Shown in pieces: positions 3,431 through 18,955 of a stretch of 20,000 bases of DNA. The stretch lies in the IMG/VR virus record IMGVR_UViG_3300027869_000007. One strand, written 5' to 3'. Source of the DNA: an uncultured virus (IMG/VR IMGVR_UViG_3300027869_000007) (Duplodnaviria; Heunggongvirae; Uroviricota; Caudoviricetes). Both the position numbers and the translations under genes were made by a program. The notes beneath the pieces were generated by a model, which was not told where the DNA came from, ran no database searches, and saw only the letters and a list, made by a program, of their open reading frames with translations. The first letter of the stretch is position 1, and each line of letters opens with the position of its first letter.

Positions 3431-3459
3431 GATGCGAAAAAGACTAGAGGATTGGAGCA

Positions 3460-3945: not shown

Positions 3946-4163
3946 CCATAGACATCTGCAGCGTGGCCAGATGACACGCATGATCGCGAGCATGGTCAAG
4001 AATCAAACCCCGGACAGCTAGTAATAGCTGGATCTAAGTAAGAGGGGACTGTGAGAAAAAGGGCTCGCATACAGTAGGTAGCAGGTTCTCGCGACAGCAG
4101 GCGTCCCGGTTACAGCCTGCATGTACAGACCAAGCCGGGGCAGGACCGGCCAGGTGTCTTTGG
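3946..4163 (+). ncRNA. Candidate structured non-coding RNA upstream of rtcB
   Basis: The ends pair (3946-3958 with 4151-4163). Internal hairpins include CAGCTA-GTAA-TAGCTG and GCAGGC/GCCTGC, with several pseudoknot-type complementarities. No convincing + strand ORF is present. Confidence 0.6.
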
Positions 4164-4181
4164 TGTTAATTAGGAGGGACC

Positions 4182-5426: not shown

Positions 5427-5454
5427 AAAGATGCGAAAGCAGTAAGGAGGTTTT

Positions 5455-5934
5455 ATGTTGGAATTAAACGAAAAGGAATCTAAGCTTTTAAGCACGATGA
5501 AGGCTTCGAACGGACCTGTGACTATCGCCGACGCTGCAAACGAATGCTGGGGAGACAAGAGCAAGGAACAGGCACAATCGTGGGTAAGAAACTGTCTTAG
5601 GAAGCTTGTAACGCTAAAACTGGTAAATCAAGTAGGTCGTGGTACTTATGAAGTGTCAAGGCTTGTTAAGGTTCTATCTGAGGATAAGGACGTAGATAAA
5701 AAGGTAGACAAGAAAGCACGAAAAGAGCTGATAGCTAAGCGTGCCGAGGCGGTCAATAAAAGAGAAGAGGAAGTCGTGTATGAAGCGGAGGATACATTAT
5801 CGTTAGCAGATGACGAAGACGAGGATATGGACGAAGACGGGTGTCCTAATGACGATGACGAAGTGTACGATGATGATGATGAAGACGAAAATGAAGATGA
5901 AGACGACGACGAAGACGAACAAGAAGAGGATTGA
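5455..5934 (+). CDS. Winged-helix-like protein with a long Asp/Glu-rich C-terminal tail
   Basis: RBS AAGGAGG. The N-terminus has a wHTH pattern (VTIADAANECW...WVRNCLRKLVTLKLVNQVGRGTYEV) and the last ~45 aa are mostly D/E. Confidence 0.8.
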   Translation: MLELNEKESKLLSTMKASNGPVTIADAANECWGDKSKEQAQSWVRNCLRKLVTLKLVNQVGRGTYEVSRLVKVLSEDKDVDKKVDKKARKELIAKRAEAVNKREEEVVYEAEDTLSLADDEDEDMDEDGCPNDDDEVYDDDDEDENEDEDDDEDEQEED

Positions 5935-6110
5935 AACACAAGTTCACAGGAGCGCGACGCCGAGCGCAGGCGGAAGTAGTACCTTCATCTACAGCTCTTG
6001 ATAATAACAAAAACAGCAGGAGGTTCCTCGGATGTGATATAAACGAAAACGATTGCAACAAACAGGTTAACAAAAACCATGACAAAAGCACAAACTGGCA
6101 TGAAGTCTGA
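5931..6110 (+). pseudogene. Probable decayed N4/N6 DNA methyltransferase fragment
   Basis: PSAGGSSTFI in one frame and KNSRRFLGCDINEN in another resemble the split SAM-binding motif I region (DPFAGSGST...RRFIGCDI). Confidence 0.45.
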
Positions 6111-6139
6111 AAACGCAAACGTAGGAGAAATCTAAGAAA

Positions 6140-6985
6140 ATGGCAAATCTACCCCCTGAGCTAGCACAAGAAGTCGGTCGTTCTCGTTCCGCCGGAGGTG
6201 GGACCAACATCCAGCATGGAGATTACATCTTCATGATCAGGAAGTGTTTCTTCCAGAAGATTCAGCATGCGTGCGTTATCACCGAGCTTATGACTATCGA
6301 GGCTAAGGCTAAGCGAGTTTTCGAAGGCACCAAGGCCGTCGATCATGAGCCCAACCCGGTCGGTCAGGACTGTTCTAGCGTCATCGATTTCGACGGCAAG
6401 GGAGCAGCCTCGGCTAAGAACAATGTTCGTGACCTGGTTGTCGGACTCTTCGGTCTCGATAACAACGTAGCCGACGACATCGTCACTAAGACCTCAGCAG
6501 AGATGGTCTGCGACAACTCCCCGGCGATTGGTATGCTAATCTCCTGCTCCACCCACGCCAAGCCGATTAGGTCTAGGCCCGGCGATTTCATGACCGCCCT
6601 TCATTGGTCGTGCGTCGCTAAGCCTTTCACCGGCCTTAACGACGTAGCGTCGGTAAGGGCCCGCCTTGACGCTTTTGCACGAGGTGGTGCGGAGGCGTGT
6701 GTCAAGGTTGCTCTTGAGCAACTCCAGGCTGCTCGTAAGGCTGGAGCGACGATTGTGCCGCAGCAGGCACCGACTGAGTCTAGTTTCACGGCTCCGTCTT
6801 TGGTTTCTACGCCTGCTGTTCCTTCGGCTCCTTCGTTCCCTCCTGTTCTACAGGCAGATCCGGTAGCTGCAGCTCTTTCAGCAGGATGGCTACCGCATCC
6901 ACAAAACTCGGAATATCTCTATCATCCATCGTTGCCGCAAGGGCAGAATGTAAAGAAGAAGACCGAGTTTAACGGCGTTCAGTAG
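6140..6985 (+). CDS. Hypothetical protein, possibly a single-stranded DNA-binding protein
   Basis: RBS AGGAG, C-ending codon bias suggesting high expression, beta-rich N-terminus, Pro/Ala linker and a small C-terminal GWLPHPQNSEYLY module. Lies in the replication cluster; the function is inferred from context only. Confidence 0.6.
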   Translation: MANLPPELAQEVGRSRSAGGGTNIQHGDYIFMIRKCFFQKIQHACVITELMTIEAKAKRVFEGTKAVDHEPNPVGQDCSSVIDFDGKGAASAKNNVRDLVVGLFGLDNNVADDIVTKTSAEMVCDNSPAIGMLISCSTHAKPIRSRPGDFMTALHWSCVAKPFTGLNDVASVRARLDAFARGGAEACVKVALEQLQAARKAGATIVPQQAPTESSFTAPSLVSTPAVPSAPSFPPVLQADPVAAALSAGWLPHPQNSEYLYHPSLPQGQNVKKKTEFNGVQ

Positions 6986-6992
6986 CAGGTTT

Positions 6993-7055
6993 CCAGGGCG
7001 CGCTATCTTCAGGGTCCTCCTCCTTCCCTGTCGGTGGCGCGCCCTGGTCTTTTTT
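6993..7055 (+). terminator. Intrinsic terminator-like long hairpin
   Basis: CCAGGGCGCGC...GCGCGCCCTGG stem followed by TCTTTTTT. Confidence 0.75.
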
Positions 7056-8274
7056 GGAGGGAGCCTTGTTTCACTGGACCGACGAGCAGAACTACGCTCT
7101 AGACGCTATTGACAAGTGGTCATGCAGCGGAGAACCGTTTTTCTCTCTTACAGGTCCAGCAGGAACGGGAAAAAGTACACTACTTCGCGAGGTAGCTGCC
7201 AGGTTTACAGGAGCACATTTAGCAGCTATGACTGGAAAAGCTGCGCTTAGGCTTTCTCAATGTACTGGTCAGACGGCTACAACGCTTCATTCGGTTTTGT
7301 ATTATCCTCCTAAGCCTGGTGAGTCGGTTAAATTTACTCGTACCAGGGAGCCAGAATCGTCGATCTATACGGTAGATGAAAGCTCTATGCTAACACCTGT
7401 TATATTTAACGACATGAAAAAGTGGGCGAGACAGGGTGTTAAGTTTCTTCTTGTAGGTGATTCGTTTCAGCTTCCTCCCGTAATTACAGCCGAAGAAGCA
7501 CGTGAACACGGACAAGACTACAGCGTTTTCTGTTTCGTAAAAGGTGTCGAATTAAAGACTGTGTTGAGAAACGCTGGCGGTGTTCTTCGCGCCGCGACTA
7601 AGGTACGCGAAACAGGTCAAATTTGTCGTGAATCGGACGAAGGGTATGAGTATTTAGAGTGCAACTCGTCGATGGAAAAAGCTGTAGACGACTATTGCAA
7701 TGACATGCATGACCACTTGTTGATTACTTGGAGAAATGCCGTTCGAATGGCTGCTAATCGTATGGTGAGACAGCGACTTGGACATGAAGGAGAACTTCCA
7801 GATGAAGGAGAGCCGGTTCTAATTCGTAGAAACGGCGGTGGGTATCTAAACGGAGAAATTGTAATTTGTGGCGGATTTGAAGTAGGTCCTAAGCTTGGGT
7901 CGATGAACACTCTTTGGATGACGGTTAAAGGAAATTATAACAAGCTATTAGTATCTTATGAAGGCAAGGAAGAGTTTTTCGACGGACAAACGCCATGGAT
8001 TGAGAACTGGAAGAAATATCATATAGATTTGAATAAGGCATGCTTGAATGAGCCGGTACCAATCAGTTGGGGTTATGTTCTTACAGGCCATCAATGCCAG
8101 GGGTCACAAGCTAGAAGAACTACCGTTTTTCTACAAAACGGCGATGAGAGAAGTTCTAACTTTTTAAGGATGACTACACTGCCGTCAGGCGAAAAGGCAA
8201 GTACCATGTCCAGATGGTGCTATACCGCTCAGACGCGCTCAGTTGAGCGAACCACCATGATCGTGGGCAGATGA
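7054..8274 (+). CDS. RecD/Dda-like SF1B helicase (true start may be TTG 7066)
   Basis: Motifs TGPAGTGKST, VDESSM, LLVGDSFQLPPV, GYVLTGHQCQGSQ and YTAQTR. Confidence 0.9.
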   Translation: MEGALFHWTDEQNYALDAIDKWSCSGEPFFSLTGPAGTGKSTLLREVAARFTGAHLAAMTGKAALRLSQCTGQTATTLHSVLYYPPKPGESVKFTRTREPESSIYTVDESSMLTPVIFNDMKKWARQGVKFLLVGDSFQLPPVITAEEAREHGQDYSVFCFVKGVELKTVLRNAGGVLRAATKVRETGQICRESDEGYEYLECNSSMEKAVDDYCNDMHDHLLITWRNAVRMAANRMVRQRLGHEGELPDEGEPVLIRRNGGGYLNGEIVICGGFEVGPKLGSMNTLWMTVKGNYNKLLVSYEGKEEFFDGQTPWIENWKKYHIDLNKACLNEPVPISWGYVLTGHQCQGSQARRTTVFLQNGDERSSNFLRMTTLPSGEKASTMSRWCYTAQTRSVERTTMIVGR

Positions 8275-10748
8275 TCGACAAATCAAAAATTTTCGCCTTC
8301 GACACCGAAACTTATAGGTTTTCGCCAGGAAACCTAGCACCGAAAATCGTATGTGCATCGATATCTGAAATCGTCAATGGAAAACCGAAAGGAAAACTTC
8401 TAGTAGTAACAGACAACATTATTCAACGTTTTGAACAGCTCATAGAAGCTGACAGTCTTATTGCGTTTGCTAACGCTCCTTATGACTTGGCAGTTATAGC
8501 ACAAGCATCCCAAGAGCTGCTACCACTTATATTTCGTGCTATAGAAAAAGGTCAAATTCACGACATACTTACAGCAAGAGCGCTTAACGATATTTACGGA
8601 GGTCATTTATTTCTAAATCCGAATATGACCGAATTGAGAAATCCGTCTACTGGTAAAATCACACACCGATATAGCCTTGCTCTTGTTACTCAACTAGTTC
8701 TAGGTAGGACAGACGCTAAGAAGAACGATGCATGGAGAGAGTCTTATGCGCTTCTAGACAATATACCACCTGAAAGATGGTCTGAAGAAGCGAGAGTCTA
8801 TCCTGTAGACGATACCGACAACACACTTGAAGTCGCAATCGCGCAAATTGAAGGAATAGGAAAGCACGATTGGATAGTAGTTCCCGCCTCATCGACAATT
8901 TGCAGGCATTGCGGAGAGACATATAGCTTTGATATCGACGGTTTAGCATGCCTAAAAGCACCCAAGGAACCGCATAAAAATCTCAACAATTTACCGGCGC
9001 AGGTTGAAGCCGATTTTGCAGCGCATCTTGGAGCTTGTCATGGTCTACGAACCGACCCCAAAAGTGTGGAGAAGCTTTCTGCTCTAGTAGAAGAGAAGCA
9101 TGCAATAGCTGTAAAAAGATTCAAGGCAAAGGGCTGGATAAGAGAAGACGGTACCGAAGACCAGTGCGCCGTAAAGAGAGCTGTAGCTATTGCTTATGGC
9201 GCTACAGGCAATTGCTCAAAGTGCGGCGGCAGCGGTAAGGTACAAAAGTCTAAACTGGAAGATTGTCGAGGCATAAAAGAGAAAAACCGATTTAAGGGAT
9301 GCCTTGGTGTCGATTGTGAAGTGTGTTTTGGAAGTCTAAAAGTCGAAAAAATACAAAAGAAACCAGTTACTTGTAAGAATATTTTTGACAAAAATACCGG
9401 TGACATGATCGAGGGAGGATGTGACGGAACAGGGTTAGATTTATCGACAGCTCCGATGCTACCAAGGACTGAAAAGCAAGGTGTTAAAACCGATAGAGAC
9501 GCTTCTATGGAGAGCGGCGATGAAGACATCTCAGATTACGGTGAAAATGAATTTGAAAAATCATTGTCTACCTACGTACCATACCTTCGTAGTGGTATCG
9601 ACAAACCTTTATCCTATAGCCCAAACGTCCTCGTCGCTACCGGTCGCTATTCGTATGAAGGTTCTCCAATGCACCAAATGCCTCGCGACGGTCTTGAGCG
9701 AGAGTGTATAAGAGCACGAGGAGCGTGGTGCGGCTATCCTGAGGAGATGATTTTAGGAGCAACTGATTATCAAGCCGGAGAACTTTGTACGTTAGCACAA
9801 TATTGCTACTGGGTGTTCGGTTACTCGCAGATGAGAGAGATTATCAATCATACCGGGGAACCAGGAATACTACACTCAGATCTAGCAGCTGAGGTTCTCG
9901 GACTATCTCTTCCTGAATTTCTCTCAAGACTTAAAGCTAAAGATAAACAGGCAAAGGATTTTCGATACGCTTCAAAGTCTATCAATTTCGGTCGACCAGG
10001 AGGCATGGGAACTCCTAAGCTTATAATTACAAATAGAAAGAAGAACGCAGGATTTACTTTATGTGAAAACGGTCCTGCAACTAATAAAAAGGGTGAGACG
10101 GGCTATTGGGGAATTCGTTACTGCATTCTAGTAGGAGGAGCTAAGCAGTGTGGGACGGAGAAGATTTTGACATGGAAAGACAGAGCCTGCGCCCCGGTTT
10201 GTGCTACTTGTGCCGAAGTAGTTGAGAATATCCTTACCCCTGCCTATTTTCGCCGCTACCCGGAAGTGAAAGACCTTCACAGGTGGGTTGCCGACAAGAT
10301 AGATCGGGGAGAGCCTTCACCTTGTGCTGTTTGGGACCCAGAAGTCGGTGCGCCGAAGATTGTTCGCCTGAGAGGAGGGTGTGACTTCCCCTCGTTTGCA
10401 AACAACGTCTTTCAGTCCATGCTGTCAGATGTTATCAAGCATGCATACGTAGCGATGACCAAAGAGTGCTATCTTGGCGTAAAGTCTGACGGTTCGCCGT
10501 CGCCGTTGGCAGGATGTAGAATACCTATTGTTATGCATGATGAGCCTTTGTCGGAGCTGATCTTGAGGACAGCACACTTGTCGGCTCCTAGAATTGCAGA
10601 AATCATGATGACTTCTGGACAAACACTAGCTCCTCATGTTAAATGGAAGGCTGAAAGTGCGATAGCTTTTAGGTGGTCAAAAAACATGGAACCCGTTTAC
10701 AATGACGGAATGCTTGTGCCGTGGGAGTCGGAGAAGGTGGCAGCATGA
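8271..10748 (+). CDS. polA: Family A DNA polymerase with a 3'-5' exonuclease domain and Cys-rich insertions
   Basis: ExoI FDTET, ExoII NAPYD, ExoIII YPVDD, TGRYS, motif A DYQAGEL, motif B RYASKSINFG, NNVFQS and motif C MHDE. Confidence 0.92.
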   Translation: MIDKSKIFAFDTETYRFSPGNLAPKIVCASISEIVNGKPKGKLLVVTDNIIQRFEQLIEADSLIAFANAPYDLAVIAQASQELLPLIFRAIEKGQIHDILTARALNDIYGGHLFLNPNMTELRNPSTGKITHRYSLALVTQLVLGRTDAKKNDAWRESYALLDNIPPERWSEEARVYPVDDTDNTLEVAIAQIEGIGKHDWIVVPASSTICRHCGETYSFDIDGLACLKAPKEPHKNLNNLPAQVEADFAAHLGACHGLRTDPKSVEKLSALVEEKHAIAVKRFKAKGWIREDGTEDQCAVKRAVAIAYGATGNCSKCGGSGKVQKSKLEDCRGIKEKNRFKGCLGVDCEVCFGSLKVEKIQKKPVTCKNIFDKNTGDMIEGGCDGTGLDLSTAPMLPRTEKQGVKTDRDASMESGDEDISDYGENEFEKSLSTYVPYLRSGIDKPLSYSPNVLVATGRYSYEGSPMHQMPRDGLERECIRARGAWCGYPEEMILGATDYQAGELCTLAQYCYWVFGYSQMREIINHTGEPGILHSDLAAEVLGLSLPEFLSRLKAKDKQAKDFRYASKSINFGRPGGMGTPKLIITNRKKNAGFTLCENGPATNKKGETGYWGIRYCILVGGAKQCGTEKILTWKDRACAPVCATCAEVVENILTPAYFRRYPEVKDLHRWVADKIDRGEPSPCAVWDPEVGAPKIVRLRGGCDFPSFANNVFQSMLSDVIKHAYVAMTKECYLGVKSDGSPSPLAGCRIPIVMHDEPLSELILRTAHLSAPRIAEIMMTSGQTLAPHVKWKAESAIAFRWSKNMEPVYNDGMLVPWESEKVAA

Positions 10749-10930
10749 TCGAAGTCGATGTCTCAGACTGGAGGCCATGTCCTTTTTGTGAAGGCAGATA
10801 TGGCAAGGACGATACTGGAAAAGCCCTGTGCCATACTATTCCACCTTGTAACGAGTACGTCGACTTTGAGGCGAGAGACTTCTTGGTTTTAGCTAACAGG
10901 GCTGAGGAAAAGGCCAGGAAGATGAATTGA
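10745..10930 (+). CDS. Small Zn-finger-like protein
   Basis: The ATG overlaps the polymerase stop (ATGA); contains CPFC...CH...C. Confidence 0.6.
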   Translation: MIEVDVSDWRPCPFCEGRYGKDDTGKALCHTIPPCNEYVDFEARDFLVLANRAEEKARKMN

Positions 10931-11151
10931 TGTTACGAGAATGGAAAGATCTTACCGACAGAGAGCAAAAAACTGCTCTTGATGTTCTTCACGAAGCGCG
11001 CCAGATGTGGAGCAAGCTGCGTGCTTTTGAGGTCGATCGTGAAGAACTGTTAGAAGTTGCTATTCAGTTCGTGGATAACTCTAGGAGAAAATTTGAAAAA
11101 GGTATCAAAGATAACAGCAAGAAAAACGGCCACAAAAACGGGAAAAAATAA
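10927..11151 (+). CDS. Hypothetical protein
   Basis: 74-aa ORF coupled to the upstream stop codon. Confidence 0.6.
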   Translation: MMLREWKDLTDREQKTALDVLHEARQMWSKLRAFEVDREELLEVAIQFVDNSRRKFEKGIKDNSKKNGHKNGKK

Positions 11152-11362
11152 GGCAGCCAAGCCAGCATGGTACGAACTCTCTCCTAGTTGTAGAGGAGGT
11201 CTTTATAGATTTATGAGGCAGGAGAAAGACAGGCTTTTTTATTTTGATTCAGATGTGGAAGACACCTATCGTGCAGCTTTGGAGGTGTTGAGGTTGGCAG
11301 TGAGCGATGAAAACGTTAAGAACGCTATTGCTAGAGCTGTATTTAACAGGCGTTGGGGTTAA
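11093..11362 (+). CDS. Hypothetical basic protein
   Basis: AGGAG RBS before TTG 11093, in frame with the listed ORF 11057-11362. Confidence 0.55.
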   Translation: MKKVSKITARKTATKTGKNKAAKPAWYELSPSCRGGLYRFMRQEKDRLFYFDSDVEDTYRAALEVLRLAVSDENVKNAIARAVFNRRWG

Positions 11363-11367
11363 AGATA

Positions 11368-11685
11368 ATGTATTGCAACTACTGTGCAAAGCAGACTAAT
11401 AAAACTTGCCGATGCGACAGGTTAATTCGTGGCGAAGATAAAAGTAATCTTGTAACTGAGCAGACTAAGCCTATGGAAGAAAGATCTTTTTTGCCAGTAG
11501 TATGGAACCTAGTACTTGAAGATATGAAACTACGCGATCAAATAGGCAGGCAACGCTACGGTACGCCGTTGCAACCTTTCAACGGACGTGACGCTCTTGT
11601 AGACGCCTATCAGGAAGCACTCGATTTAGTTGTCTATCTGAGACAGGCCATCTGGGAGCGTGATAACAAAAAGGAAACACCGTGA
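11368..11685 (+). CDS. Small all-alpha NTP-pyrophosphatase-like phage protein with an N-terminal Cys motif
   Basis: RDQIGRQRYGTPL...DAYQEALDLVVYL pattern and N-terminal CNYC...CRC. Confidence 0.55.
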   Translation: MYCNYCAKQTNKTCRCDRLIRGEDKSNLVTEQTKPMEERSFLPVVWNLVLEDMKLRDQIGRQRYGTPLQPFNGRDALVDAYQEALDLVVYLRQAIWERDNKKETP

Positions 11686-12194
11686 CAAAAGCACAACTTC
11701 AGGTTCAAGAGTTTCACAGAGAAGTCGTAGGCAGTCCTACTTCGCCAGCAACTCCACAACTACGCGACTCGGAGTTGAGAGCAAGGCTCATTCTTGAAGA
11801 ATCTTTTGAGACAGTCGTAGCCCTGGTAGGAGCCAAAAAAGCGATTTCGCTTATTAAACACGAACTAGATTCGTTACCTAGAACGAGCAGCAAACCGAGT
11901 TTGATTGAGACGATAGACGGTCTGTGTGATTTGTGGTATGTGTTACTTGGAACCGCAGAGACTATAGGAATCGATCTTGAGCCGTTCATGGACGAGGTTC
12001 ACCGATCGAACATGCTAAAGAAAGGTGCCGGTGTAGACAAGTACGGAAAGCAGTTGAAACCAAAGGGATGGAAGCCGCCTGATATTGCCGGGGTGCTTTG
12101 TGCTTATCTTGCAGGTATCGGACCTCTGATGGGCCAATGGCCAGGAGAGGAGAGCGACGACGAAGTTTTCGACGCTCTTGAGAATGATGACTGA
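11682..12194 (+). CDS. MazG-like / PRA-PH (DR2231-like) nucleoside triphosphate pyrophosphohydrolase
   Basis: Motifs VQEFH, LRARLILEESFE, ETIDGLCDLWYVLLG, EVHRSNMLK and GKQLKPKGWKPPDI. Confidence 0.85.
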   Translation: MTKAQLQVQEFHREVVGSPTSPATPQLRDSELRARLILEESFETVVALVGAKKAISLIKHELDSLPRTSSKPSLIETIDGLCDLWYVLLGTAETIGIDLEPFMDEVHRSNMLKKGAGVDKYGKQLKPKGWKPPDIAGVLCAYLAGIGPLMGQWPGEESDDEVFDALENDD

Positions 12195-12714
12195 CACTCT
12201 AGCGGTAGACCCAGGAATCCGTGGATGCGGAGTAGCTCTATTTATAGAGGGCAAACTTTTAGAAGCAACTTATATAAAAAACCCTGTTAAAAAAGGCAAT
12301 GACCCCGAAGTAAGCGCAAATATGGCTTACGAAGTTTTTGCCTGGTATTGCACTCAGATAGAAAAGTTTCCGGTTATCGATATAGAGCTGTTGTTAGAAA
12401 AACAGCAGACATATGGAGGTAAGGCAGCCAGAGGCGATGCTAATGATTTATTTCCTTTAGCTGCAATAAACGGAGCGTTGGTTGCTTATATTAAGTCGCG
12501 TCGAACGATTTCTTATTTCCCTCGTGAGTGGAAGGGGAATGTAAACGCTGATATTATGATAGAGCGAATTAAAAGCAGGCTTACTACTGAAGAAATGTCG
12601 ACGGTGATGTTGACGTCCGCGAAAAGCCTGCATCACAATATTTGGGATGCTGTTGGTATAGGTCTATATCATTTATGTCGGTTAGAGAAGACGAGAATAA
12701 TCCATAGGGAGTAA
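12184..12714 (+). CDS. RuvC-like Holliday junction resolvase (RNase H fold)
   Basis: Motifs LAVDPGIRGCGVA, LLEKQ, PREWKG and HNIWDAVGIG. Confidence 0.8.
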   Translation: MMTDTLAVDPGIRGCGVALFIEGKLLEATYIKNPVKKGNDPEVSANMAYEVFAWYCTQIEKFPVIDIELLLEKQQTYGGKAARGDANDLFPLAAINGALVAYIKSRRTISYFPREWKGNVNADIMIERIKSRLTTEEMSTVMLTSAKSLHHNIWDAVGIGLYHLCRLEKTRIIHRE

Positions 12715-12718
12715 GATC

Positions 12719-12895
12719 TTGTCCAATAAGGAAAAGGCTGGGTATATTTTTTGGATATTTATTTCTTTATTGGCAGGACTACTTAATATAGCAGGTGAAG
12801 GAACATTTTCTAAAGTTGTAGCCGCATTAGGCTTTTTTCAAACAGGAACATGGGTCATGTTAGCGGCCGTAACTTACCGCGACTCTAAAAAATAA
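12719..12895 (+). CDS. Small membrane protein (58 aa, two hydrophobic segments); not in the ORF track
   Basis: AGGGAG RBS and TTG start; translates to MSNKEKAGYIFWIFISLLAGLLNIAGEGTFSKVVAALGFFQTGTWVMLAAVTYRDSKK. Confidence 0.6.
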   Translation: MSNKEKAGYIFWIFISLLAGLLNIAGEGTFSKVVAALGFFQTGTWVMLAAVTYRDSKK

Positions 12896-12897
12896 AT

Positions 12898-12926
12898 TTG
12901 ACATTAAAATGCTTGTTAGGCATACT
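12898..12926 (+). promoter_or_regulatory. Sigma70-type promoter of the tRNA array
   Basis: TTGACA (12898-12903), a 17-bp spacer and CATACT (12921-12926); expected start site near G12933. Confidence 0.8.
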
Positions 12927-12929
12927 AAT

Positions 12930-13046
12930 ATGGTGACGATCAGAACGAAAAAGGCACAGCCGAGACACTTGGACGCGTCGCGCGTCATATGGGGATATAG
13001 CGGCCACCCCTTGATCAAGTTTAATTGGGAGGCTGCCAGACCCTAG
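12930..13046 (+). CDS. Putative attenuator leader peptide (38 aa from ATG 12930, or 37 aa leaderless from GTG 12933)
   Basis: MVTIRTKKAQPRHLDASRVIWGYSGHPLIKFNWEAARP followed by tandem TAG TAG. The ORF starts at the predicted transcription start and ends inside the antiterminator arm. Confidence 0.6.
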   Translation: MVTIRTKKAQPRHLDASRVIWGYSGHPLIKFNWEAARP

Positions 13047-13106
13047 TAGAACCTAAATAGGGAAAACTAGAGGTCGGGCGAGACGAAAGTTCTCCCGGCC
13101 TTTTTT
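13000..13106 (+). terminator. Attenuator: alternative hairpins ending in an intrinsic terminator
   Basis: Terminator AGGTCGGG...GAAA...CCCGGCCT plus a T run (13071-13106). A competing helix pairs 13035-13047 with 13066-13079, and an upstream hairpin spans 13000-13036. Confidence 0.7.
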
Positions 13107-13112
13107 GTTTTC

Positions 13113-13182
13113 GGGTCGTCCTCTGGGAGGACGTTGGTTTCCAAAACCGACTAGCAGGGTTCGATTCCTTGACGACCCGCCA
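13113..13182 (+). tRNA. tRNA-Trp(CCA), short atypical D arm
   Basis: Acceptor GGGTCGT/ACGACCC, G73, encoded CCA, loop TT-CCA-AA, T loop TTCGATT. Confidence 0.8.
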
Positions 13183-13234
13183 TAACAGTGTGAAAAAATA
13201 GGTGTTTTACGAATTTTGTTGACTGATAAGTGAC

Positions 13235-13319
13235 GGGGTGATAGACCACTAGAGAGGTGGGGCTAGCTGTAAACTAGTCGTTCTTTTGAGCCAACCGAGT
13301 GCGACTCTCGGGCACCCCA
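13235..13319 (+). tRNA. tRNA-Tyr(GTA)
   Basis: GGGGTG/CACCCC acceptor, GCTAG-CT-GTA-AA-CTAGT, long variable arm, T loop TGCGACT. Confidence 0.8.
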
Positions 13320-13375
13320 CCTAGCTTGGCGAGTCTTAGTAGCGAAACGCGAACGGCCGTGTAGCCAAGAAGTAG

Positions 13376-13396
13376 TTGATTTTGAAAACAAAATAG
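13376..13396 (+). promoter_or_regulatory. boxA-like antitermination element
   Basis: TTGATTTTGAAAACAAAATAG resembles the rrn leader/spacer boxA (TCTTTGAAAAC). Confidence 0.5.
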
Positions 13397-13437
13397 TCGA
13401 CGACGAAAACAGACCTTGGTCTATATCAAGGTCTTAT

Positions 13438-13510
13438 GCGTGTGTGATGTTTAACGGTAGCATGACGGTCTTCCAAGCCGCCTGTAGGAGTTCGAATCTC
13501 CTCACACGCT
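13438..13510 (+). tRNA. tRNA-Gly(TCC)
   Basis: GCGTGTG/CACACGC acceptor, U73, loop CT-TCC-AA. Confidence 0.88.
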
Positions 13511-13514
13511 CTAT

Positions 13515-13585
13515 TCCGGTGTCGTCTAATGGTAAGGCGCAGGTCTTTGAATCCTGCTATAGTGGTTCGATCCCACTCGCCGGAA
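13515..13585 (+). tRNA. tRNA-Gln(TTG)
   Basis: TCCGGTG/CGCCGGA acceptor, loop CT-TTG-AA. Confidence 0.88.
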
Positions 13586-13594
13586 CTTTGTTTC

Positions 13595-13668
13595 TCGGGG
13601 ATCGTCTAACGGTAGGACGATAGATTCTGAATCTATCTATCAAGGTTCGAATCCTTGTCCCCGAACCA
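13595..13668 (+). tRNA. tRNA-Gln(CTG)
   Basis: TCGGGGA/TCCCCGA acceptor, ATAGA-TT-CTG-AA-TCTAT, encoded CCA. Confidence 0.92.
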
Positions 13669-13669
13669 C

Positions 13670-13744
13670 GCCTGTGTAGCACAATGGTAGTGCAGCGGTT
13701 TTGTAAACCGAAGGTTGGAGGTTCAAATCCTCTCGCAGGCTCCA
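13670..13744 (+). tRNA. tRNA-Thr(TGT)
   Basis: GCCTGTG/CGCAGGC acceptor, loop TT-TGT-AA, encoded CCA. Confidence 0.92.
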
Positions 13745-13755
13745 ACTCGCTTTAT

Positions 13756-13830
13756 TCCAGCGTATCATAATGGAAATGAACCCGACTGTTAATCGGGGAT
13801 ATGTACGTTCGAGTCGTGCCGCTGGAGCCA
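13756..13830 (+). tRNA. tRNA-Asn(GTT)
   Basis: TCCAGCG/CGCTGGA acceptor, G73, CCCGA-CT-GTT-AA-TCGGG, encoded CCA. Confidence 0.92.
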
Positions 13831-13831
13831 T

Positions 13832-13905
13832 GGCGCCATCGTACAATGGCAGTACCACGGTTTTTCACACCGTTTACGAGAGTTCGATTCTCTCTGGCGT
13901 CACCA
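13832..13905 (+). tRNA. tRNA-Glu(TTC)
   Basis: GGCGCCA/TGGCGTC acceptor, ACGGT-TT-TTC-AC-ACCGT, encoded CCA. Confidence 0.9.
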
Positions 13906-13908
13906 TTT

Positions 13909-13983
13909 CCGAGTGTAAGTCAGCAGCAGACGGCATGCTTTGGGAGCATGCAGCCGGGGGTGCAAGTCCCTCCACTCGGACCA
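13909..13983 (+). tRNA. tRNA-Pro(TGG)
   Basis: CCGAGTG/CACTCGG acceptor, CATGC-TT-TGG-GA-GCATG, A73, encoded CCA. Confidence 0.88.
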
Positions 13984-13992
13984 ATTTAAAAT

Positions 13993-14067
13993 CCGCCGTT
14001 AGTTCAATGGGAGAACGCTTTCCTGATTAGAGAGAGGTTGAAAGTTCGACTCTTTCACGGCGGACCA
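13993..14067 (+). tRNA. tRNA-Ile(GAT), unusual U37
   Basis: CCGCCGT/ACGGCGG acceptor, loop CT-GAT-TA, encoded CCA. Confidence 0.85.
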
Positions 14068-14082
14068 AGATAGGAGAACGTC

Positions 14083-14559
14083 ATGGCTAGGAGAAGCATC
14101 GCAAAGACCGCGATTGAGGGCGGTCGTCACGGTACCTGTCGTTCTGCAGAAGATGAAGCAGACCGTCGCGAGCGACGTGCCTGGAGGGACTACTGCCGCC
14201 GCGCCTCCTATGATTTTGATGTCGAGGACCCTGCCGGAGTGTCTTTTGCTGCACCGTACGAGACTGGTCGGCAATACCGCGAGTTTGATGACAAACTGAA
14301 GCCTGTCAAACGCTGGCTCGAATCTCAGGTAGGGAGACCTTGGGACCACATTAAAAGTGATGTGGTAGCGCTATTCGATAATCGTACTACGGCCGGGCGA
14401 CACATTATTGAACACGTGAAGTGTTTTGTGTCGCTTCCTACAGATCAGCATAGATACAACCCATATCCACCCTACCCAGGTAAGTTGTATGTTGATGAGC
14501 ACGGCGTGTTGCGACAGGCACCTTGGATGTCACGTAAGAAATGGTATGCATCTAGGTGA
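14083..14559 (+). CDS. Basic hypothetical protein embedded in the tRNA array
   Basis: AGGAG RBS; 158 aa with AIEGGR, DKLKPVKRWLESQVGRPW, RTTAGRHI and LYVDEHGVLR motifs. Confidence 0.8.
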   Translation: MARRSIAKTAIEGGRHGTCRSAEDEADRRERRAWRDYCRRASYDFDVEDPAGVSFAAPYETGRQYREFDDKLKPVKRWLESQVGRPWDHIKSDVVALFDNRTTAGRHIIEHVKCFVSLPTDQHRYNPYPPYPGKLYVDEHGVLRQAPWMSRKKWYASR

Positions 14560-14562
14560 TAT

Positions 14563-14639
14563 GGTGACGTTGGTGTAGCGGCACTGCACGTTTGCCTGTG
14601 GAGCAAAAGGTATGGGATCGACACCCATACGTCACCCCA
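14563..14639 (+). tRNA. tRNA-His(GTG)
   Basis: G-1:C73 pair, GTGACGT/ACGTCAC acceptor, TTTGC-CT-GTG-GA-GCAAA, encoded CCA. Confidence 0.9.
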
Positions 14640-14641
14640 AC

Positions 14642-14717
14642 GCACGCGAGGTTCCCTGGAGGGAACGCCGTCCTGTCACGACGGAGTGGACGGGTTCGAT
14701 TCCCGTCGCGTGCGCCA
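14642..14717 (+). tRNA. tRNA-Asp(GTC)
   Basis: GCACGCG/CGCGTGC acceptor, G73, CCGTC-CT-GTC-AC-GACGG, encoded CCA. Confidence 0.9.
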
Positions 14718-14718
14718 C

Positions 14719-14789
14719 GCCCCGGCAGCTCGAAGGTCGAGCGTCCCGCTGAAAATGGGAAGGTGAAGGTCCAATTCCTTCCTGGGGCA
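14719..14789 (+). tRNA. tRNA-Phe(GAA)
   Basis: GCCCCGG/CTGGGGC acceptor, loop CT-GAA-AA, T loop TCCAATT. Confidence 0.85.
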
Positions 14790-14794
14790 CAAAC

Positions 14795-14866
14795 GGGAAG
14801 CCCGCTGAAGCGGAAGACTGGTTTGCAACCAGACTGTGAAGGGTTTGATTCCCTTGCTTTCCACCA
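14795..14866 (+). tRNA. tRNA-Ala(TGC), atypical D arm
   Basis: GGGAAGC/GCTTTCC acceptor gives the G3:U70 Ala determinant; A73, loop TT-TGC-AA, encoded CCA. Confidence 0.8.
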
Positions 14867-14869
14867 TAT

Positions 14870-14942
14870 ACGCGTATAGCTCAATTGGAAGAGCACTCGG
14901 CTACGAACCGAGAGGCTGTGGGTCCGAGTCCCTCTACGCGTA
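14870..14942 (+). tRNA. tRNA-Arg(ACG)
   Basis: ACGCGTA/TACGCGT acceptor, CTCGG-CT-ACG-AA-CCGAG. Confidence 0.88.
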
Positions 14943-14947
14943 CTATT

Positions 14948-15023
14948 GTCCTCGTAGCTCAACTGGAAGAGCAAGCGCGTCCTAAGCGCGAGGTTGCGGG
15001 TTCAAATCCCGCCGAGGATACCA
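14948..15023 (+). tRNA. tRNA-Arg(CCT)
   Basis: GTCCTCG/CGAGGAT acceptor, loop GT-CCT-AA, encoded CCA. Confidence 0.88.
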
Positions 15024-15048
15024 TGCGACAGGCACTTGAGCCGAGTCC

Positions 15049-15122
15049 GGCGCCATAGTACAATGGTAGTACCACGGTTTTACACACCGTTTACGCGAGT
15101 TCGATTCTCGCTGGCGTCACCA
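15049..15122 (+). tRNA. tRNA-Val(TAC), near-identical paralogue of tRNA-Glu(TTC)
   Basis: ACGGT-TT-TAC-AC-ACCGT, A73, encoded CCA; differs from 13832-13905 at five positions. Confidence 0.85.
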
Positions 15123-15125
15123 TTT

Positions 15126-15147
15126 CCGAGTGTAAGCCATCGGACCA
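15126..15147 (+). pseudogene. Internally deleted copy of tRNA-Pro
   Basis: CCGAGTGTAAG (5' end of tRNA-Pro) is joined to TCGGACCA (its 3' end), with the same TTT spacer after the upstream tRNA. Confidence 0.75.
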
Positions 15148-15152
15148 ATCGG

Positions 15153-15212
15153 CATTGACAAACGACTTTGACAAACAACATTGACAAACAACAACGATAA
15201 ACAACAATGATA
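15153..15212. repeat. 13-bp degenerate tandem repeat (about 4.5 copies)
   Basis: CATTGACAAACGA / CTTTGACAAACAA / CATTGACAAACAA / CAACGATAAACAA / CAATGATA. Confidence 0.85.
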
Positions 15213-15373
15213 CTGACCTATAAATATCGTCTAAAAGGTAAGCGTACTATTAGGCAGCTAAAGCAATTTGCTTTCGCGTTGAGGACAAGCTACTAGCTCC
15301 TGACGTAGCCGTAGGCATAGACTTAGGTCTAAAGAGCCTTGCAACTCTCAGCAACGGCGAAAAAATCGACAAT
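15207..15373 (+). pseudogene. tnpB: IS200/IS605 TnpB relic with a large internal deletion
   Basis: N-terminus MILTYKYRLKGKRTIRQL, then in another frame the RuvC-I motif AVGIDLGLKSLATLSNGEKIDN. Confidence 0.8.
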
Positions 15374-15430
15374 ATAACAGCCTATAGACTGGCACTATAT
15401 TTGGTGTGATAGAATAGAAGGGAGGTTAAA

Positions 15431-15973
15431 GTGCAAACGCTAGTCTTAGACGTAGGATACCAACCACTTAGTCGAGTTCCTTGGGAAACTGCAATTGTAT
15501 GGGTTTTGGAACGCGTTGTAGAGGTTGTCGAATCTTATCCAGACAGATATATCAATACTGTCAGTTGGCGTGTAAATATGCCTTCTATAGTTCGATTTGT
15601 AAAGCCTATTGTAAAGAAGCGAGCAATCAAGTTTAGTCGACACAGCGTCTACGCACGTGATAAAGGACGATGTCAGTATTGCTCTAAGTTTGTTTCTCGT
15701 AATGAGTTTACATATGATCACGTAATCCCTAGATCACAAGGCGGCATTACATGTTTTGAAAACGTAGTTGTAGCTTGCGTTCCTTGTAATCAAAGAAAAG
15801 CCGGTAGGACACCTGGTCAAGCCGGAATGCGTCTTTTATCTATTCCTGTTAGACCTAAGAAACTTCCAGACGTGCCTTATAGAATTCGTTTTACAAATGA
15901 CATGCCTTCTTCGTGGAAAGAGTGGATCAGATCGGCAGTTTATTGGGATTCTGAATTGGACGACGGAGGGTGA
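15431..15973 (+). CDS. HNH endonuclease (McrA-like HNH family)
   Basis: Motifs LVLDVGYQPL, PSIVRF, FSRHSVYARDKGRCQYC, TYDHVIPRSQGG and NVVVACVPCNQRK; RBS GGAGG. Confidence 0.93.
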   Translation: MQTLVLDVGYQPLSRVPWETAIVWVLERVVEVVESYPDRYINTVSWRVNMPSIVRFVKPIVKKRAIKFSRHSVYARDKGRCQYCSKFVSRNEFTYDHVIPRSQGGITCFENVVVACVPCNQRKAGRTPGQAGMRLLSIPVRPKKLPDVPYRIRFTNDMPSSWKEWIRSAVYWDSELDDGG

Positions 15974-16050
15974 ACCGGGATGGTCTCGGCACTGTCTTGA
16001 AAACAGAGGGTGCTTAACGGCATGGCGTTCGATTCGTCCGCCCTCCTCCA
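15965..16050 (+). tRNA. tRNA-Ser(TGA), overlapping the HNH stop codon
   Basis: GGAGGGT/GCCCTCC acceptor, loop CT-TGA-AA, long variable arm, U73, encoded CCA. Confidence 0.88.
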
Positions 16051-16086
16051 CCTCCCCCGAGCCGCAGCGGTCTCTGCGGCGCTCCT

Positions 16087-16170
16087 GGAAGGTAAACCAC
16101 ACCGGGTGTGGGCTTGTTTCGAAAACAATGCGAGCTAAAGCTTGGAGTTCGACTCTTCTGCCTTCCTCCA
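16087..16170 (+). tRNA. tRNA-Ser(CGA)
   Basis: GGAAGGT/GCCTTCC acceptor, loop TT-CGA-AA, long variable arm, encoded CCA. Confidence 0.88.
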
Positions 16171-16172
16171 AT

Positions 16173-16259
16173 GGAAGATTAACCGGCAAGGTAGCCGGCG
16201 CCGATTGCTAATCGGTAGGAGCCAAAAGGCTTGGGGATCGTGCCCTCAGTCTTCCGCCA
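16173..16259 (+). tRNA. tRNA-Ser(GCT)
   Basis: GGAAGAT/GTCTTCC acceptor, GCCGA-TT-GCT-AA-TCGGT, long variable arm, G73, encoded CCA. Confidence 0.9.
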
Positions 16260-16278
16260 AATTTCGTCGTCGACTAAC

Positions 16279-16352
16279 GCTCTGCGGGCTGGACGCCCAG
16301 CGAAGCCTTCTAAGCTTTGCGTCGATAGGTTCGATTCCTATGCAGAGCACCA
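16279..16352 (+). tRNA. tRNA-Arg(TCT), atypical D arm
   Basis: GCTCTGC/GCAGAGC acceptor, GAAGC-CT-TCT-AA-GCTTT, encoded CCA. Confidence 0.85.
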
Positions 16353-16353
16353 T

Positions 16354-16426
16354 CGACCAATAGCTTAATGGTTTAAAGCACTTGCCTTATAAGCGAGAGA
16401 TGATGGTTCGATCCCATCTTGGTCGA
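16354..16426 (+). tRNA. tRNA-Ile(TAT)
   Basis: CGACCAA/TTGGTCG acceptor, A73, CTTGC-CT-TAT-AA-GCGAG. Confidence 0.87.
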
Positions 16427-16452
16427 CTACTTGATAGGGTAGAGGCACTATA

Positions 16453-16600: not shown

Positions 16601-16698
16601 CAGGTGACTGACGTCCCTCGTCGGACCTCGACGAAAAATCAAGCCGGTATATCCGGTCTAGCCCCAGGTAGTTAAACTCCCTGGGGTTTTTCTTTTTT
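16601..16698 (+). ncRNA. Candidate small RNA (or 23-codon mini-ORF) between a promoter and a terminator
   Basis: Hairpins TCGTCG/CGACGA and CCGG/CCGG followed by the terminator; GTG 16604 opens a 23-aa ORF. Confidence 0.45.
16660..16698 (+). terminator. Intrinsic terminator
   Basis: GCCCCAGG...CCTGGGGT stem followed by TTTTCTTTTTT. Confidence 0.85.
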
Positions 16699-16760: not shown

Positions 16761-17219
16761 TTGATCGACAATAGCGACAAGCCGATGAGGCACGAAAATT
16801 ATTTGGCAATGGCATCCGAATGTCAAAAACTTACTGCCGAAAATTTAAAATTGAAAGAAAAGTTTAGTCGTAAGCCTTCGATTACTAAGAACGAATTGAC
16901 AGCAATAACAACCGGTATTGGCATCACTACTACTATATTTACTAGCGGTTTTATTACGTATATGAGCGCTGCAAGGGTTGAAAACACAACTCCTATAGAC
17001 GCAAGTGCGTCTGAAGTAAGAACCACTCCTTGTTATTTCGTTCGTCATAAGTTGGACGAAGGTATCGATAAGAATTTAGAGCCATGGGACGACTGGTACA
17101 TTTTTAAGTCCATGTGCGAAGGTTGTGAAAATAGAGTCGTTTATAGTTCTCCCAAATTTAAAACCAAAGACGAAGCCTGGAATTTTGCTAAGAGCTGGCA
17201 TTTAGAGATGTGCAAATGA
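16761..17219 (+). CDS. Hypothetical protein with a coiled coil and one hydrophobic segment
   Basis: Strong RBS GGGGGAGG and TTG start. Confidence 0.7.
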   Translation: MIDNSDKPMRHENYLAMASECQKLTAENLKLKEKFSRKPSITKNELTAITTGIGITTTIFTSGFITYMSAARVENTTPIDASASEVRTTPCYFVRHKLDEGIDKNLEPWDDWYIFKSMCEGCENRVVYSSPKFKTKDEAWNFAKSWHLEMCK

Positions 17220-17433: not shown

Positions 17434-17928
17434 ATGCGCGTTTTGTTTCTAGATATGGACGGTGTCGTAAACTCTTCAGACTTTTTTGAAGTGTTTAGCA
17501 AGACGCAGTATCGTAAAGCAAGAGGTATAGCTAAAGCCAAGGGAAGATTAAATAACACGTTTGTCGATATGATAGATCCGAAAGTCGTAACTCTTCTAAA
17601 TCAGATAATCGAAAGTTGCAATTGTAGCGTCGTTAGTAGCTCTTCGTGGAGAACTATTTTTACGCCTAAAGAGATAACTTTGATGCTGAAGGAAAAAGGC
17701 TTTAAAGGAGAGATAATAGACAGGACTCCTGATCTAATGTGTGAACGTGGAGACGAGATTCTAGAGTGGTTGAACAAGCATCCTGAAGTAAAGTCTTTTG
17801 TAATTCTAGATGATGGTGATGACATGGGAAAGCTACTACCTAGGCTAGTCCAGACTACCTTTCAAAAAGGGCTTCAACTTGAGCACGTTAGAAAGGTGTT
17901 TGATCTTTTTGATGGAGATGTTAAGTGA
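17434..17928 (+). CDS. HAD phosphatase, Swiss Army Knife RNA-repair type (HAD_SAK_2-like)
   Basis: Motifs VLFLDMDGVVNS, VVSSSSWR, TPD, RGDEILEWL, FVILDD and VQT...GL. Confidence 0.88.
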   Translation: MRVLFLDMDGVVNSSDFFEVFSKTQYRKARGIAKAKGRLNNTFVDMIDPKVVTLLNQIIESCNCSVVSSSSWRTIFTPKEITLMLKEKGFKGEIIDRTPDLMCERGDEILEWLNKHPEVKSFVILDDGDDMGKLLPRLVQTTFQKGLQLEHVRKVFDLFDGDVK

Positions 17929-18194: not shown

Positions 18195-18446
18195 GTGAAA
18201 CTTATCACAAGTAACCTCAAAGTCGGCGGCTGGCGTGGCGTCTTTGGCTGGCTGTTATGGCTATTTCTAGGATACGAAAGAAAGCCAAGATGCGCAGCTT
18301 TTTATAGCCACGCTTGGGACAGCAGGTGTGTAGGTCTTGCAGACCCTAGATGTCTGGGTGGAAATTGTACCAAGTGCTGTAACGAACTTTGCAAGGACAG
18401 GTGTAGGCACAGAGGCTGGACGGTTATGAAGGGAGGTGTGTCGTGA
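18195..18446 (+). CDS. Small Cys-rich protein with a hydrophobic segment
   Basis: RBS GGGGAG; eight Cys in the C-terminal half. Confidence 0.6.
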   Translation: MKLITSNLKVGGWRGVFGWLLWLFLGYERKPRCAAFYSHAWDSRCVGLADPRCLGGNCTKCCNELCKDRCRHRGWTVMKGGVS

Positions 18447-18955
18447 CGGACGACGGCAATGAAGATGATCCTATTATCTTACGTTTTGCTATATTTTTTG
18501 CTAAAACGAAGCACGAAGGACAATATTACAGGTACGGTGATCACAACACACCTTATACATTTCATCTAAACGCTGTTGAAAAGGTTCTTAGACGGTTTAA
18601 TGTTATTGATAAACACTTACTAGCAGCCGCTTGGCTTCATGACGTCTTAGAGGATACAGACACCACACGCGACGAATTGGAGTCGTCTTTTGGTTCTATA
18701 GTTTCTTCTCTTGTACGGGCTGTAACAACCGAACCGGGACCTAGTCGTAAGAGTCGTGTAAAAGCGACTTATCCTAAGATTGTATCGTGCCCTTCCGCTA
18801 TTGTTTTGAAGTTAGCTGATAGAATTGCTAACGTAGAGGCTAGTTTAGAAACAAAAAGCAAGAAGTTCTTTGATATGTATAAGAACGAATACGACGAGTT
18901 TAAGAGGGCTCTTTACAGCAAAAACTGTTGCTGTAGAAATGTGGGCACATCTTGA
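18443..18955 (+). CDS. HD-domain small alarmone hydrolase-like protein (RelA/SpoT hydrolase, Mesh1-like)
   Basis: Motifs AKTKHEGQ, PYTFHL, AAWLHDVLEDT, VRAVT and LKLADRIAN; RBS GGAGG. Confidence 0.87.
   Translation: MTDDGNEDDPIILRFAIFFAKTKHEGQYYRYGDHNTPYTFHLNAVEKVLRRFNVIDKHLLAAAWLHDVLEDTDTTRDELESSFGSIVSSLVRAVTTEPGPSRKSRVKATYPKIVSCPSAIVLKLADRIANVEASLETKSKKFFDMYKNEYDEFKRALYSKNCCCRNVGTS

Follow-up and report, generated by a model that had tools for sequence, protein, structure and literature searches.

Leader-peptide transcription attenuators are known from the enterobacterial trp, his, leu, thr and ilv operons. In the whiB7 attenuator, efficient translation of its upstream open reading frame (uORF) leads to termination and stalling leads to read-through, which is obtained at many different codons, and the uORF of M. 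smegmatis encodes every amino acid but Cys, according to the accessible sections of the article (PMC10274678). Regulatory short open reading frames (ORFs) with leaderless AUG or GUG starts at the transcript 5′ end and no Shine-Dalgarno sequence are described for mycobacteria in the available part of a preprint (bioRxiv 10.1101/834739). The present analysis concerns positions 12898-13112 of a stretch of 20,000 nucleotides (nt) from an uncultured virus (IMG/VR IMGVR_UViG_3300027869_000007), the whole stretch being called the window hereafter, where a leader precedes an array of phage transfer RNA (tRNA) genes. On balance, we lean towards reading 12898-13112 as a ribosome-mediated leader-peptide transcription attenuator ahead of this array. 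In the folding model, the four defining structural features of a leader-peptide attenuator are present, and the predicted topology is that of the 1:2, 2:3 and 3:4 pairings of the trp leader, including termination when untranslated. Since the case consists of one sequence and equilibrium folding, it is put forward as a well-specified hypothesis and not as a result. The elements on which it is built, together with a second terminator used for comparison, are as follows.

217 nt between a 58-codon ORF and the tRNA array, + strand: leader stretch under study.
12898-12926, + strand: sigma-70-type promoter-like site, TTGACA-17 nt-CATACT, 10/12 consensus matches.
12933-13049, + strand: leader frame of 37 sense codons, the first of them GTG, with AGA CCC TAG TAG at its end.
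12942-12955, + strand: A-rich stretch; the folded full-length terminated RNA has it paired to the terminator U-run (13099-13112).
13000-13036, + strand: hairpin A, the putative anti-antiterminator (segments 1:2), -16.3 kcal/mol.
13027-13047, + strand: segment 2, the antiterminator strand with the last codons and the stop, able to pair with both terminator arms.
13035-13079, + strand: antiterminator hairpin (segments 2:3), 13035-13047 paired with 13066-13079, -19.4 kcal/mol.
13041-13062, + strand: small hairpin B, coexisting with the terminator in the unmasked RNA (fold of 13000-13102, -40.5 kcal/mol).
13070-13102 plus U-run 13101-13111, + strand: intrinsic terminator, a bulged G+C-rich stem-loop, -17.6 to -18.7 kcal/mol.
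16660-16698, + strand: second strong terminator, closing the tRNA transcription unit, -17.2 kcal/mol, with a long T-run.

The sequence features named in a preliminary description of the stretch, made from the letters alone, were recovered. Its near-consensus promoter with a start site on the GTG at 12933 corresponds to the 10/12 site above, from which the predicted transcript start, G12933, is 7 nt past the -10 hexamer and is the first base of the GTG. The 37-codon ORF ending AGA CCC TAG TAG lies where it had been placed, with its stop TAG at 13044-13046, a second in-frame TAG at 13047-13049, and in-frame ATGs upstream of the GTG at 12909 and 12930. The stop at 13044 falls inside the antiterminator strand 13035-13047; 402 of 20000 shuffles contained a frame with its start (ATG or GTG) within 12930-12936 and its stop within 13029-13066. 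The intrinsic terminator, formerly given as 13071-13106 and now assigned a stem at 13070-13102, has a T-run of T6 at 13101-13106 followed by G and TTTT, and ends 6 nt short of tRNA-Trp (13113), the first gene of the array. A simple terminator scan missed the stem because it contains a bulge, and it was found by our own two-strand scan with folding. Only two strong + strand terminators were detected in the 20 kilobases (kb) with both strands scanned, and they bracket the tRNA array.

The alternative helices likewise appeared in the folds as described before. These are the pairing of 13035-13047 with 13066-13079, which is mutually exclusive with the terminator, the pairing of GGGAGG (13027-13032) with UCUCCC of the terminator 3′ arm, and the competing hairpin A, which sequesters GGGAGGCUGCC of the antiterminator strand. 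The antiterminator hairpin (-19.4 kcal/mol) and the terminator (-18.7 kcal/mol) differ little in stability, and the former is part of the minimum free energy (MFE) fold of the whole leader.

Folding with and without ribosome-footprint constraints, named in the preliminary description as a check, was performed as equilibrium folding of 12933-13102, in which 28 nt were kept unpaired as a mask for each P-site codon in turn; the U-run was left out of these folds because it lies in the polymerase. The outcome was a trp-like three-state switch with hairpin A as the anti-antiterminator. Terminator probability was 0.87 with no mask and 0.94-0.96 with the mask at codons 5-15, dropped to 0.00-0.43 (mostly 0.1 or less) with the mask at codons 18-31, and was 0.88-0.97 at codons 32-37, including a ribosome at the stop. 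Masking the 5′ half of hairpin A flips the fold to the antiterminator; the drop arises because covering hairpin A frees 13027-13047 to pair with both terminator arms. In the stalled state, the modelled pairs are 13027-13032 with UCUCCC, 13034-13037 with 13076-13079, and 13039-13047 with 13066-13075 (6 + 4 + 9 pairs). The pattern was stable over three footprint sizes (shorter and longer), at 25-37 °C, and for a transcript that begins at 12700 in the upstream operon. The attenuator layout of the earlier account is thus supported in silico in its four structural features, and to a greater extent than that account had asserted, with the qualification that an untranslated leader is predicted to terminate (0.87) and not to be read through.

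Under this scheme, transcripts from the promoter at 12898-12926 or from the upstream replication-gene operon would carry the 37-codon frame over four overlapping RNA segments. When the leader carries no ribosome, or one that has arrived at the stop or at any of the final six codons, 13027-13047 would be blocked by hairpin A or by the ribosome itself, and with that strand unavailable the terminator at 13070-13102 would form and end transcription 6 nt before tRNA-Trp. A ribosome stalled with its P site at codons ~18-31 (hungry A-site codons 19-32) would melt hairpin A, and the freed strand would pair with both terminator arms, so that RNA polymerase would read into the 19 tRNA genes. As read-through would depend on stalling, slow decoding would raise phage tRNA synthesis. 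Promoter firing, translation of the frame, and the response of read-through to stalling are all predicted steps.

The switching behaviour was quantified as a switch score, for which the lowest mean over three consecutive masks is subtracted from the terminator probability without a mask. This score was 0.857 for the native leader, and one at least as high was reached by 2 of 335 dinucleotide shuffles (median 0.019, 99th percentile 0.79). Among 75 other natural terminator-like sites (free energy (dG) of -12 or lower, non-redundant loci, L028-L030 left out), none reached 0.8 and three reached 0.5, the median being 0.011; the second window terminator (16660 onwards) scored 0.031 and is not switch-like. 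The compound layout of a frame, a paired arm, and masking by the terminating ribosome was reproduced in 17 of 3000 shuffles, or in 124 of 2000 when the start codon was fixed. Where a terminator comes after an ORF of at least 60 codons, masking of the antiterminator strand by a ribosome at the stop was seen in none of 23 cases. The three-helix switch behaviour exceeds chance.

Folding of the full-length RNA gave an equilibrium terminator probability of 0.22 (lower in 15/300 shuffles), compared with 0.93 for 13000-13106 only; the low value arises because the A-run at 12942-12955 pairs with the U-run, a pairing that would not be able to exist before the termination decision. In the full terminated RNA, pairing of 12942-12955 with 13099-13112 closes a multi-branch structure.

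A scan of both strands of the 20 kb for promoter-like sites gave 31 sites compared with 22.9 ± 4.8 in shuffles. Five of the 31 have at least 10/12 matches, and two of these are on the + strand (12898 and 15181), both intergenic; the site at 12898 falls within the 37-nt gap between the stop of the 58-codon ORF and the leader frame. An internal promoter for the early tRNAs was considered and rejected, as the promoter scan gave no + strand site of at least 9/12 between 12898 and 15036; the best internal + strand candidate, judged by eye, is TTGGGA-16 nt-TAGAAC (8/12). Because there is no other + strand promoter-like site before 15036, at least the first 15 tRNAs appear to depend on transcripts that pass the terminator at 13070-13102. 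A further promoter-like site, TTGACC-17-TATCTT with an upstream TG (9/12, 16566 onwards), lies after the last tRNA. It forms a second promoter-then-terminator pair in the window, with ~65 nt from this site to the second strong terminator (16660-16688).

A number of observations weigh against an attenuator of this kind, and they concern the statistics of the fold, the translation of the frame, and its conservation. The switch score of 0.857 belongs to a measure that was defined after the native profile had been seen and that reflects folding at equilibrium instead of kinetics. Considered in isolation, the antiterminator helix is at chance level, with 51-116 of 500 dinucleotide shuffles sequestering the 5′ arm equally well, and most of the terminator 5′ arm was paired upstream in 2084 of 3000 shuffles. 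When the frame was chosen freely, masking by a ribosome at the stop was found for 8 of 52 short ORFs upstream of terminators (own leader included, the longest available short ORF before each terminator being used), and this free choice makes such masking fairly easy to obtain. No Shine-Dalgarno sequence precedes 12909, 12930 or 12933, in contrast to the GGAGG-type sites before about half of 20 phage genes. Third-position G+C of the leader frame is 0.70 versus 0.43 in the phage genes, and its codon score, which is exceeded by 97% of in-frame gene windows, falls between those of coding and non-coding windows. Since there is no Shine-Dalgarno sequence, translation would need either a leaderless GUG start or reinitiation at ATG 12909, which follows the stop of the 58-codon ORF at a distance of 13 nt, both being putative routes. 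Leaderless GUG starts function only in certain hosts. Peptide relatives were found neither in Pfam nor in PHROGs, and a HMMER search over 1.84 billion representatives returned two matches, both of them repeat-protein artefacts.

With regard to conservation, searches of GenBank phages for leader homologues (megablast, blastn) gave nothing useful, and the RuvC-like gene used as an anchor in IMG/VR, metagenome contigs and GTDB genomes gave no diverged leader copy. What the anchor search returned was limited to one copy with 99% identity (L002) and to distant relatives that have no tRNAs. The other leader copies seen, in metagenome contigs and four DNA runs, are identical in the leader, and the identity in contigs of the four runs is therefore uninformative on conservation. 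A single 30-nt match (E=2) from the GenBank searches lies inside a reductase gene and was rejected. The exact terminator pattern had no match in IMG/VR, the PolA-like gene as anchor gave no leader relative, and no RNA run with the leader stretch was found among the sequencing runs listed. Anchoring on the 158-codon ORF of the array led to L006, which has a transfer-messenger RNA (tmRNA) and no tRNA array; MW202816.1 has the same helicase-PolA-RuvC gene order and no tRNAs. In L006, a 210-kb IMG/VR contig, the relative of the 158-codon ORF (50% identical; region 5204-6444) lies directly 3′ of the phage tmRNA gene.

One unrelated jumbo-phage contig (L007, identical in L008), among 24 IMG/VR loci chosen via RtcB, has an analogous layout, which counts in favour of the reading. 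Its Shine-Dalgarno-led frame of 51 codons (16933-17088) has a UAG that forms part of a 14-bp helix. The opposite strand of this helix is the 5′ arm of a terminator at 17113-17138, which stops 7-10 nt short of the first tRNA. The region 16824-17240 of L007 comprises a divergent intergenic region, the 51-codon ORF, the helix, the terminator, tRNA-Gln, an RNase H-like ORF (PF04308, E 1.4e-33) after tRNA-Gln, and further tRNAs. The compound layout test for this locus was passed by 74 of 2000 shuffles. Its switch score, 0.31, is weak, with 1 of 51 shuffles as high, and this belongs with the points above, as does the rejection of homology between the two leaders, for which 459 of 1000 shuffles gave a nucleotide alignment at least as good. 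BLASTP of the window leader peptide against the L007 peptide gave nothing, and W-[DE]-x-A-R-[PS], common to both peptides near the C-terminus, is too short to count.

A terminator before tRNA blocks as a general rule was also rejected, which again speaks against the reading. One stands directly before 3 of 55 tRNA blocks from IMG/VR and metagenome loci (duplicate loci included, 2 unique, 0.67 expected from terminator density), and no convincing one stands directly before any of 24 blocks in three cultured RtcB phages; a relaxed scan of cultured phages gave three weak candidates at two blocks of Microbacterium phage Big4. In the IMG/VR phage contig L011, whose RtcB is 61% identical, a single region (1840-13138) holds 37 tRNA genes together with a tmRNA gene (7180-7553); the 400 nt upstream of the first of these tRNAs gave no intrinsic terminator. 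In Big4 (L037), 43 + strand tRNAs lie within the 41 kb examined, and a 275-nt divergent region precedes this large array. At 7030-7130, ~100 nt upstream of the first tRNA, a G+C-rich hairpin with TTGACA in its loop was noted by eye, followed by TTTTCTGCTT.

The preliminary description had further proposed that the peptide acts as a sensor for the loss of any host tRNA, for instance by anticodon nucleases, pointing to its use of 19 of 20 amino acids. The count (all but Cys) holds when the initiator is counted as Met and is only marginally above chance, the probability of 19 or more amino acids being 0.039 in a simulation with phage amino-acid usage and 0.043 under a random-sequence null. No run of codons for one amino acid is present in the leader. 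The switch-sensitive hungry A-site codons 19-32 (IWGYSGHPLIKFNW) encode 11 distinct residues in 14 codons (P 0.28), and their diversity was therefore rejected as evidence. A match between leader codons and array anticodons was rejected as not significant: array tRNAs can read 22 of the 36 codons of the whole frame compared with 54% genome-wide (P 0.26), and 10 of the 14 sensitive codons (P 0.15). On these values the any-tRNA sensor was not borne out, and the argument from composition is weak.

Three other explanations of the stretch were weighed. The terminator could be an ordinary, partly leaky one that belongs to the upstream replication-gene operon and insulates the array, the other features being chance and the tRNAs arising from constitutive read-through or from promoter types missed by the scan. 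The upstream genes, which all share one strand, must have a terminator at some point, and the two strong + strand terminators of the 20 kb are those that bracket the array; the ordinary antiterminator helix and the lack of conservation evidence agree with this explanation, and very many windows were looked at, so that some chance look-alikes are expected. It has to contend with a switch score matched by 2/335 shuffles and 0/75 natural terminators, with the frame placement (402/20000 shuffles), and with a promoter-like site exactly in the gap, for which the joint chance is ~1 in 10000 if the features are independent and before multiple looks are counted; we regard it as rather unlikely. That the RNA is a genuine switch flipped by something other than a ribosome, the short frame being incidental, is in our estimate quite unlikely. 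Candidate agents would be a protein from the phage or the host that causes antitermination (of the Q/N kind, or an RNA binder like BglG, PyrR or TRAP), or else an RNA or a small ligand, binding around hairpin A. The statistical support for the three-helix architecture stands with or without the frame, the frame itself has no Shine-Dalgarno sequence and an atypical third-position G+C, and antitermination-timed tRNA expression would be a natural phage strategy; the promoter, ~174-nt RNA and strong terminator also recall lambda PR′-6S RNA-tR′. Against such an agent, no non-tRNA Rfam family reached its gathering score, no antiterminator family was found among the 21 window ORFs (Pfam, PHROGs; 20 kb of the genome visible), and the placement of the frame start and stop would be left unexplained.

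A free-standing small gene unrelated to tRNA control, be it a ~174-nt structured RNA (12933-13106) or a protein of 37-45 residues, we consider very unlikely. The full-length leader RNA does fold well (MFE -65.4 kcal/mol, z-score -3.67, 2/200 shuffles as stable), and pairing of the 5′ A-run with the 3′ U-run might suit a stable terminated RNA. The leader without its terminator folds unremarkably, however (z-score -1.39, 21/200 shuffles), neither an RNA family nor protein relatives were matched in the searches described, and read-through transcripts must exist if tRNA-Trp is expressed, because 6 nt after the U-run leave no room for a promoter. In the Rfam search of the window, only tRNAs reached the gathering score; the best non-tRNA match, an L20 leader with 17 bits versus a cut-off of 58.7, and a match to H19 were rejected as chance.

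The leader-peptide attenuator would stand in the following gene neighbourhood. The phage is uncultured, tailed and novel, was detected only in soil and mine metagenomes, and has no close GenBank relative by megablast, blastn and gene-anchor comparisons. The phage has a G+C content of 47%, and all genes of the window are on the + strand.

4182-5426, + strand: RtcB RNA ligase (Pfam E 4.6e-120).
Between the RtcB and PolA-like genes, + strand: SF1 helicase.
8271-10748, + strand: PolA-like polymerase.
Between the PolA-like and RuvC-like genes, + strand: MazG-like protein.
12178-12714, + strand: RuvC-like resolvase.
12719-12895, + strand: 58-codon membrane-type ORF, stop codon 12893-12895.
13113-16427, + strand: tRNA array, 19 genes, presumed to be regulated, split by the 158-codon ORF and the HNH gene.
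13113-13182, + strand: tRNA-Trp, first array gene (ARAGORN call; Rfam 28.9 bits, cut-off 29).
14083-14559, + strand: 158-codon ORF inside the array, without a family match.
15431-15973, + strand: HNH endonuclease gene inside the array (HNH_5, E 1.3e-13).
16354-16427, + strand: last array tRNA, with the unusual anticodon UAU (Ile).
17434-17928, + strand: protein with the HAD_SAK_2 'Swiss Army Knife RNA repair' domain (E 3.1e-29).
18443-18955, + strand: HD-domain protein.
Downstream of the array, together with the HAD_SAK_2 and HD genes, + strand: pentapeptide-repeat protein.

Homing endonucleases also sit in the tRNA regions of other phages. The RtcB, HAD_SAK_2 and HD genes around the array suggest a module for tRNA repair or replacement and, as context in line with the attenuator reading, a phage that invests in maintaining tRNAs. 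Debate over the reason for tRNA genes in phages has gone on for decades, and to our knowledge the control of phage tRNA array expression has barely been studied. No account of an attenuator or leader peptide before phage tRNA genes was found in the literature searched. The main rationales offered for phage tRNA genes are codon compensation and, lately, escape from tRNA-cleaving defences (PMC10264068, PMC11555353). The RNA-repair neighbours and this work on tRNA cleavage are context, and not evidence, for the sensor idea. As a tentative extension, phages with large arrays might possess a translation-sensing feedback loop in which a mixed-codon leader serves as a test strip for decoding capacity: depletion of host tRNAs by anticodon nucleases, host shut-off or phage codon demand would stall the leader and yield more phage tRNA. 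If the element at 12898-13112 works as proposed, phage tRNA supply would be demand-controlled by the ribosome itself, the tRNA-replacement hypothesis would become directly testable through read-through, and the element would provide a compact, portable sensor of decoding stress. Given such a feedback loop, independent, non-homologous layouts such as that of L007 would point to an undescribed type of phage regulatory element that is widespread.

Among known systems in which transcription has to pass a terminator, late gene expression of phage lambda (PR′-6S RNA-tR′) reads through only with Q. This type of control uses the Q protein, a Q-binding element and a promoter-proximal pause, and needs neither overlapping helices nor a frame; none of the three was identified in the window, and Q-binding and pause elements are not recognisable from sequence alone. 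The lambda arrangement shares with the window a promoter followed within ~175-195 nt by a strong terminator that has to be overcome for downstream expression. T-box leaders likewise tie a terminator/antiterminator decision to tRNA status. Unlike the element proposed here, they make direct contact with uncharged tRNA, and their targets are amino-acid and aminoacyl-tRNA synthetase genes; the window has no Rfam T-box match (none in 12700-13500 at the gathering score or at E up to 10).

With the trp-type attenuators the window leader has in common a promoter, a short frame, and an RNA laid out in four overlapping segments for the anti-antiterminator, the antiterminator and the terminator, as well as the behaviour predicted for it, i.e., termination when untranslated or fully translated and read-through upon a stall in a window of codons. 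The window leader, characterised in silico only, differs from them in that it has no codon run for a single amino acid and no Shine-Dalgarno sequence, and in that phage tRNA genes and not biosynthetic enzymes lie downstream. The leaderless mycobacterial ORFs differ from it, in the portion of the preprint available, in being poly-Cys and Cys-responsive (bioRxiv 10.1101/834739), and the G+C content of the phage (47%) does not suggest a mycobacterial host. The whiB7/wblC leaders, as presented in the accessible sections, are unlike the window leader in their target, a cellular transcription-factor gene, and in a uORF that is enriched in Ala and conserved across species (PMC10274678). Among characterised examples, the whiB7 uORF attenuator is the one to which the proposed element comes closest: the M. 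smegmatis uORF and the window frame both lack only Cys, stalling at many kinds of codon leads to read-through, and the whiB7 leader likewise combines a longer uORF of mixed composition with a rho-independent terminator and an antiterminator (PMC10274678).

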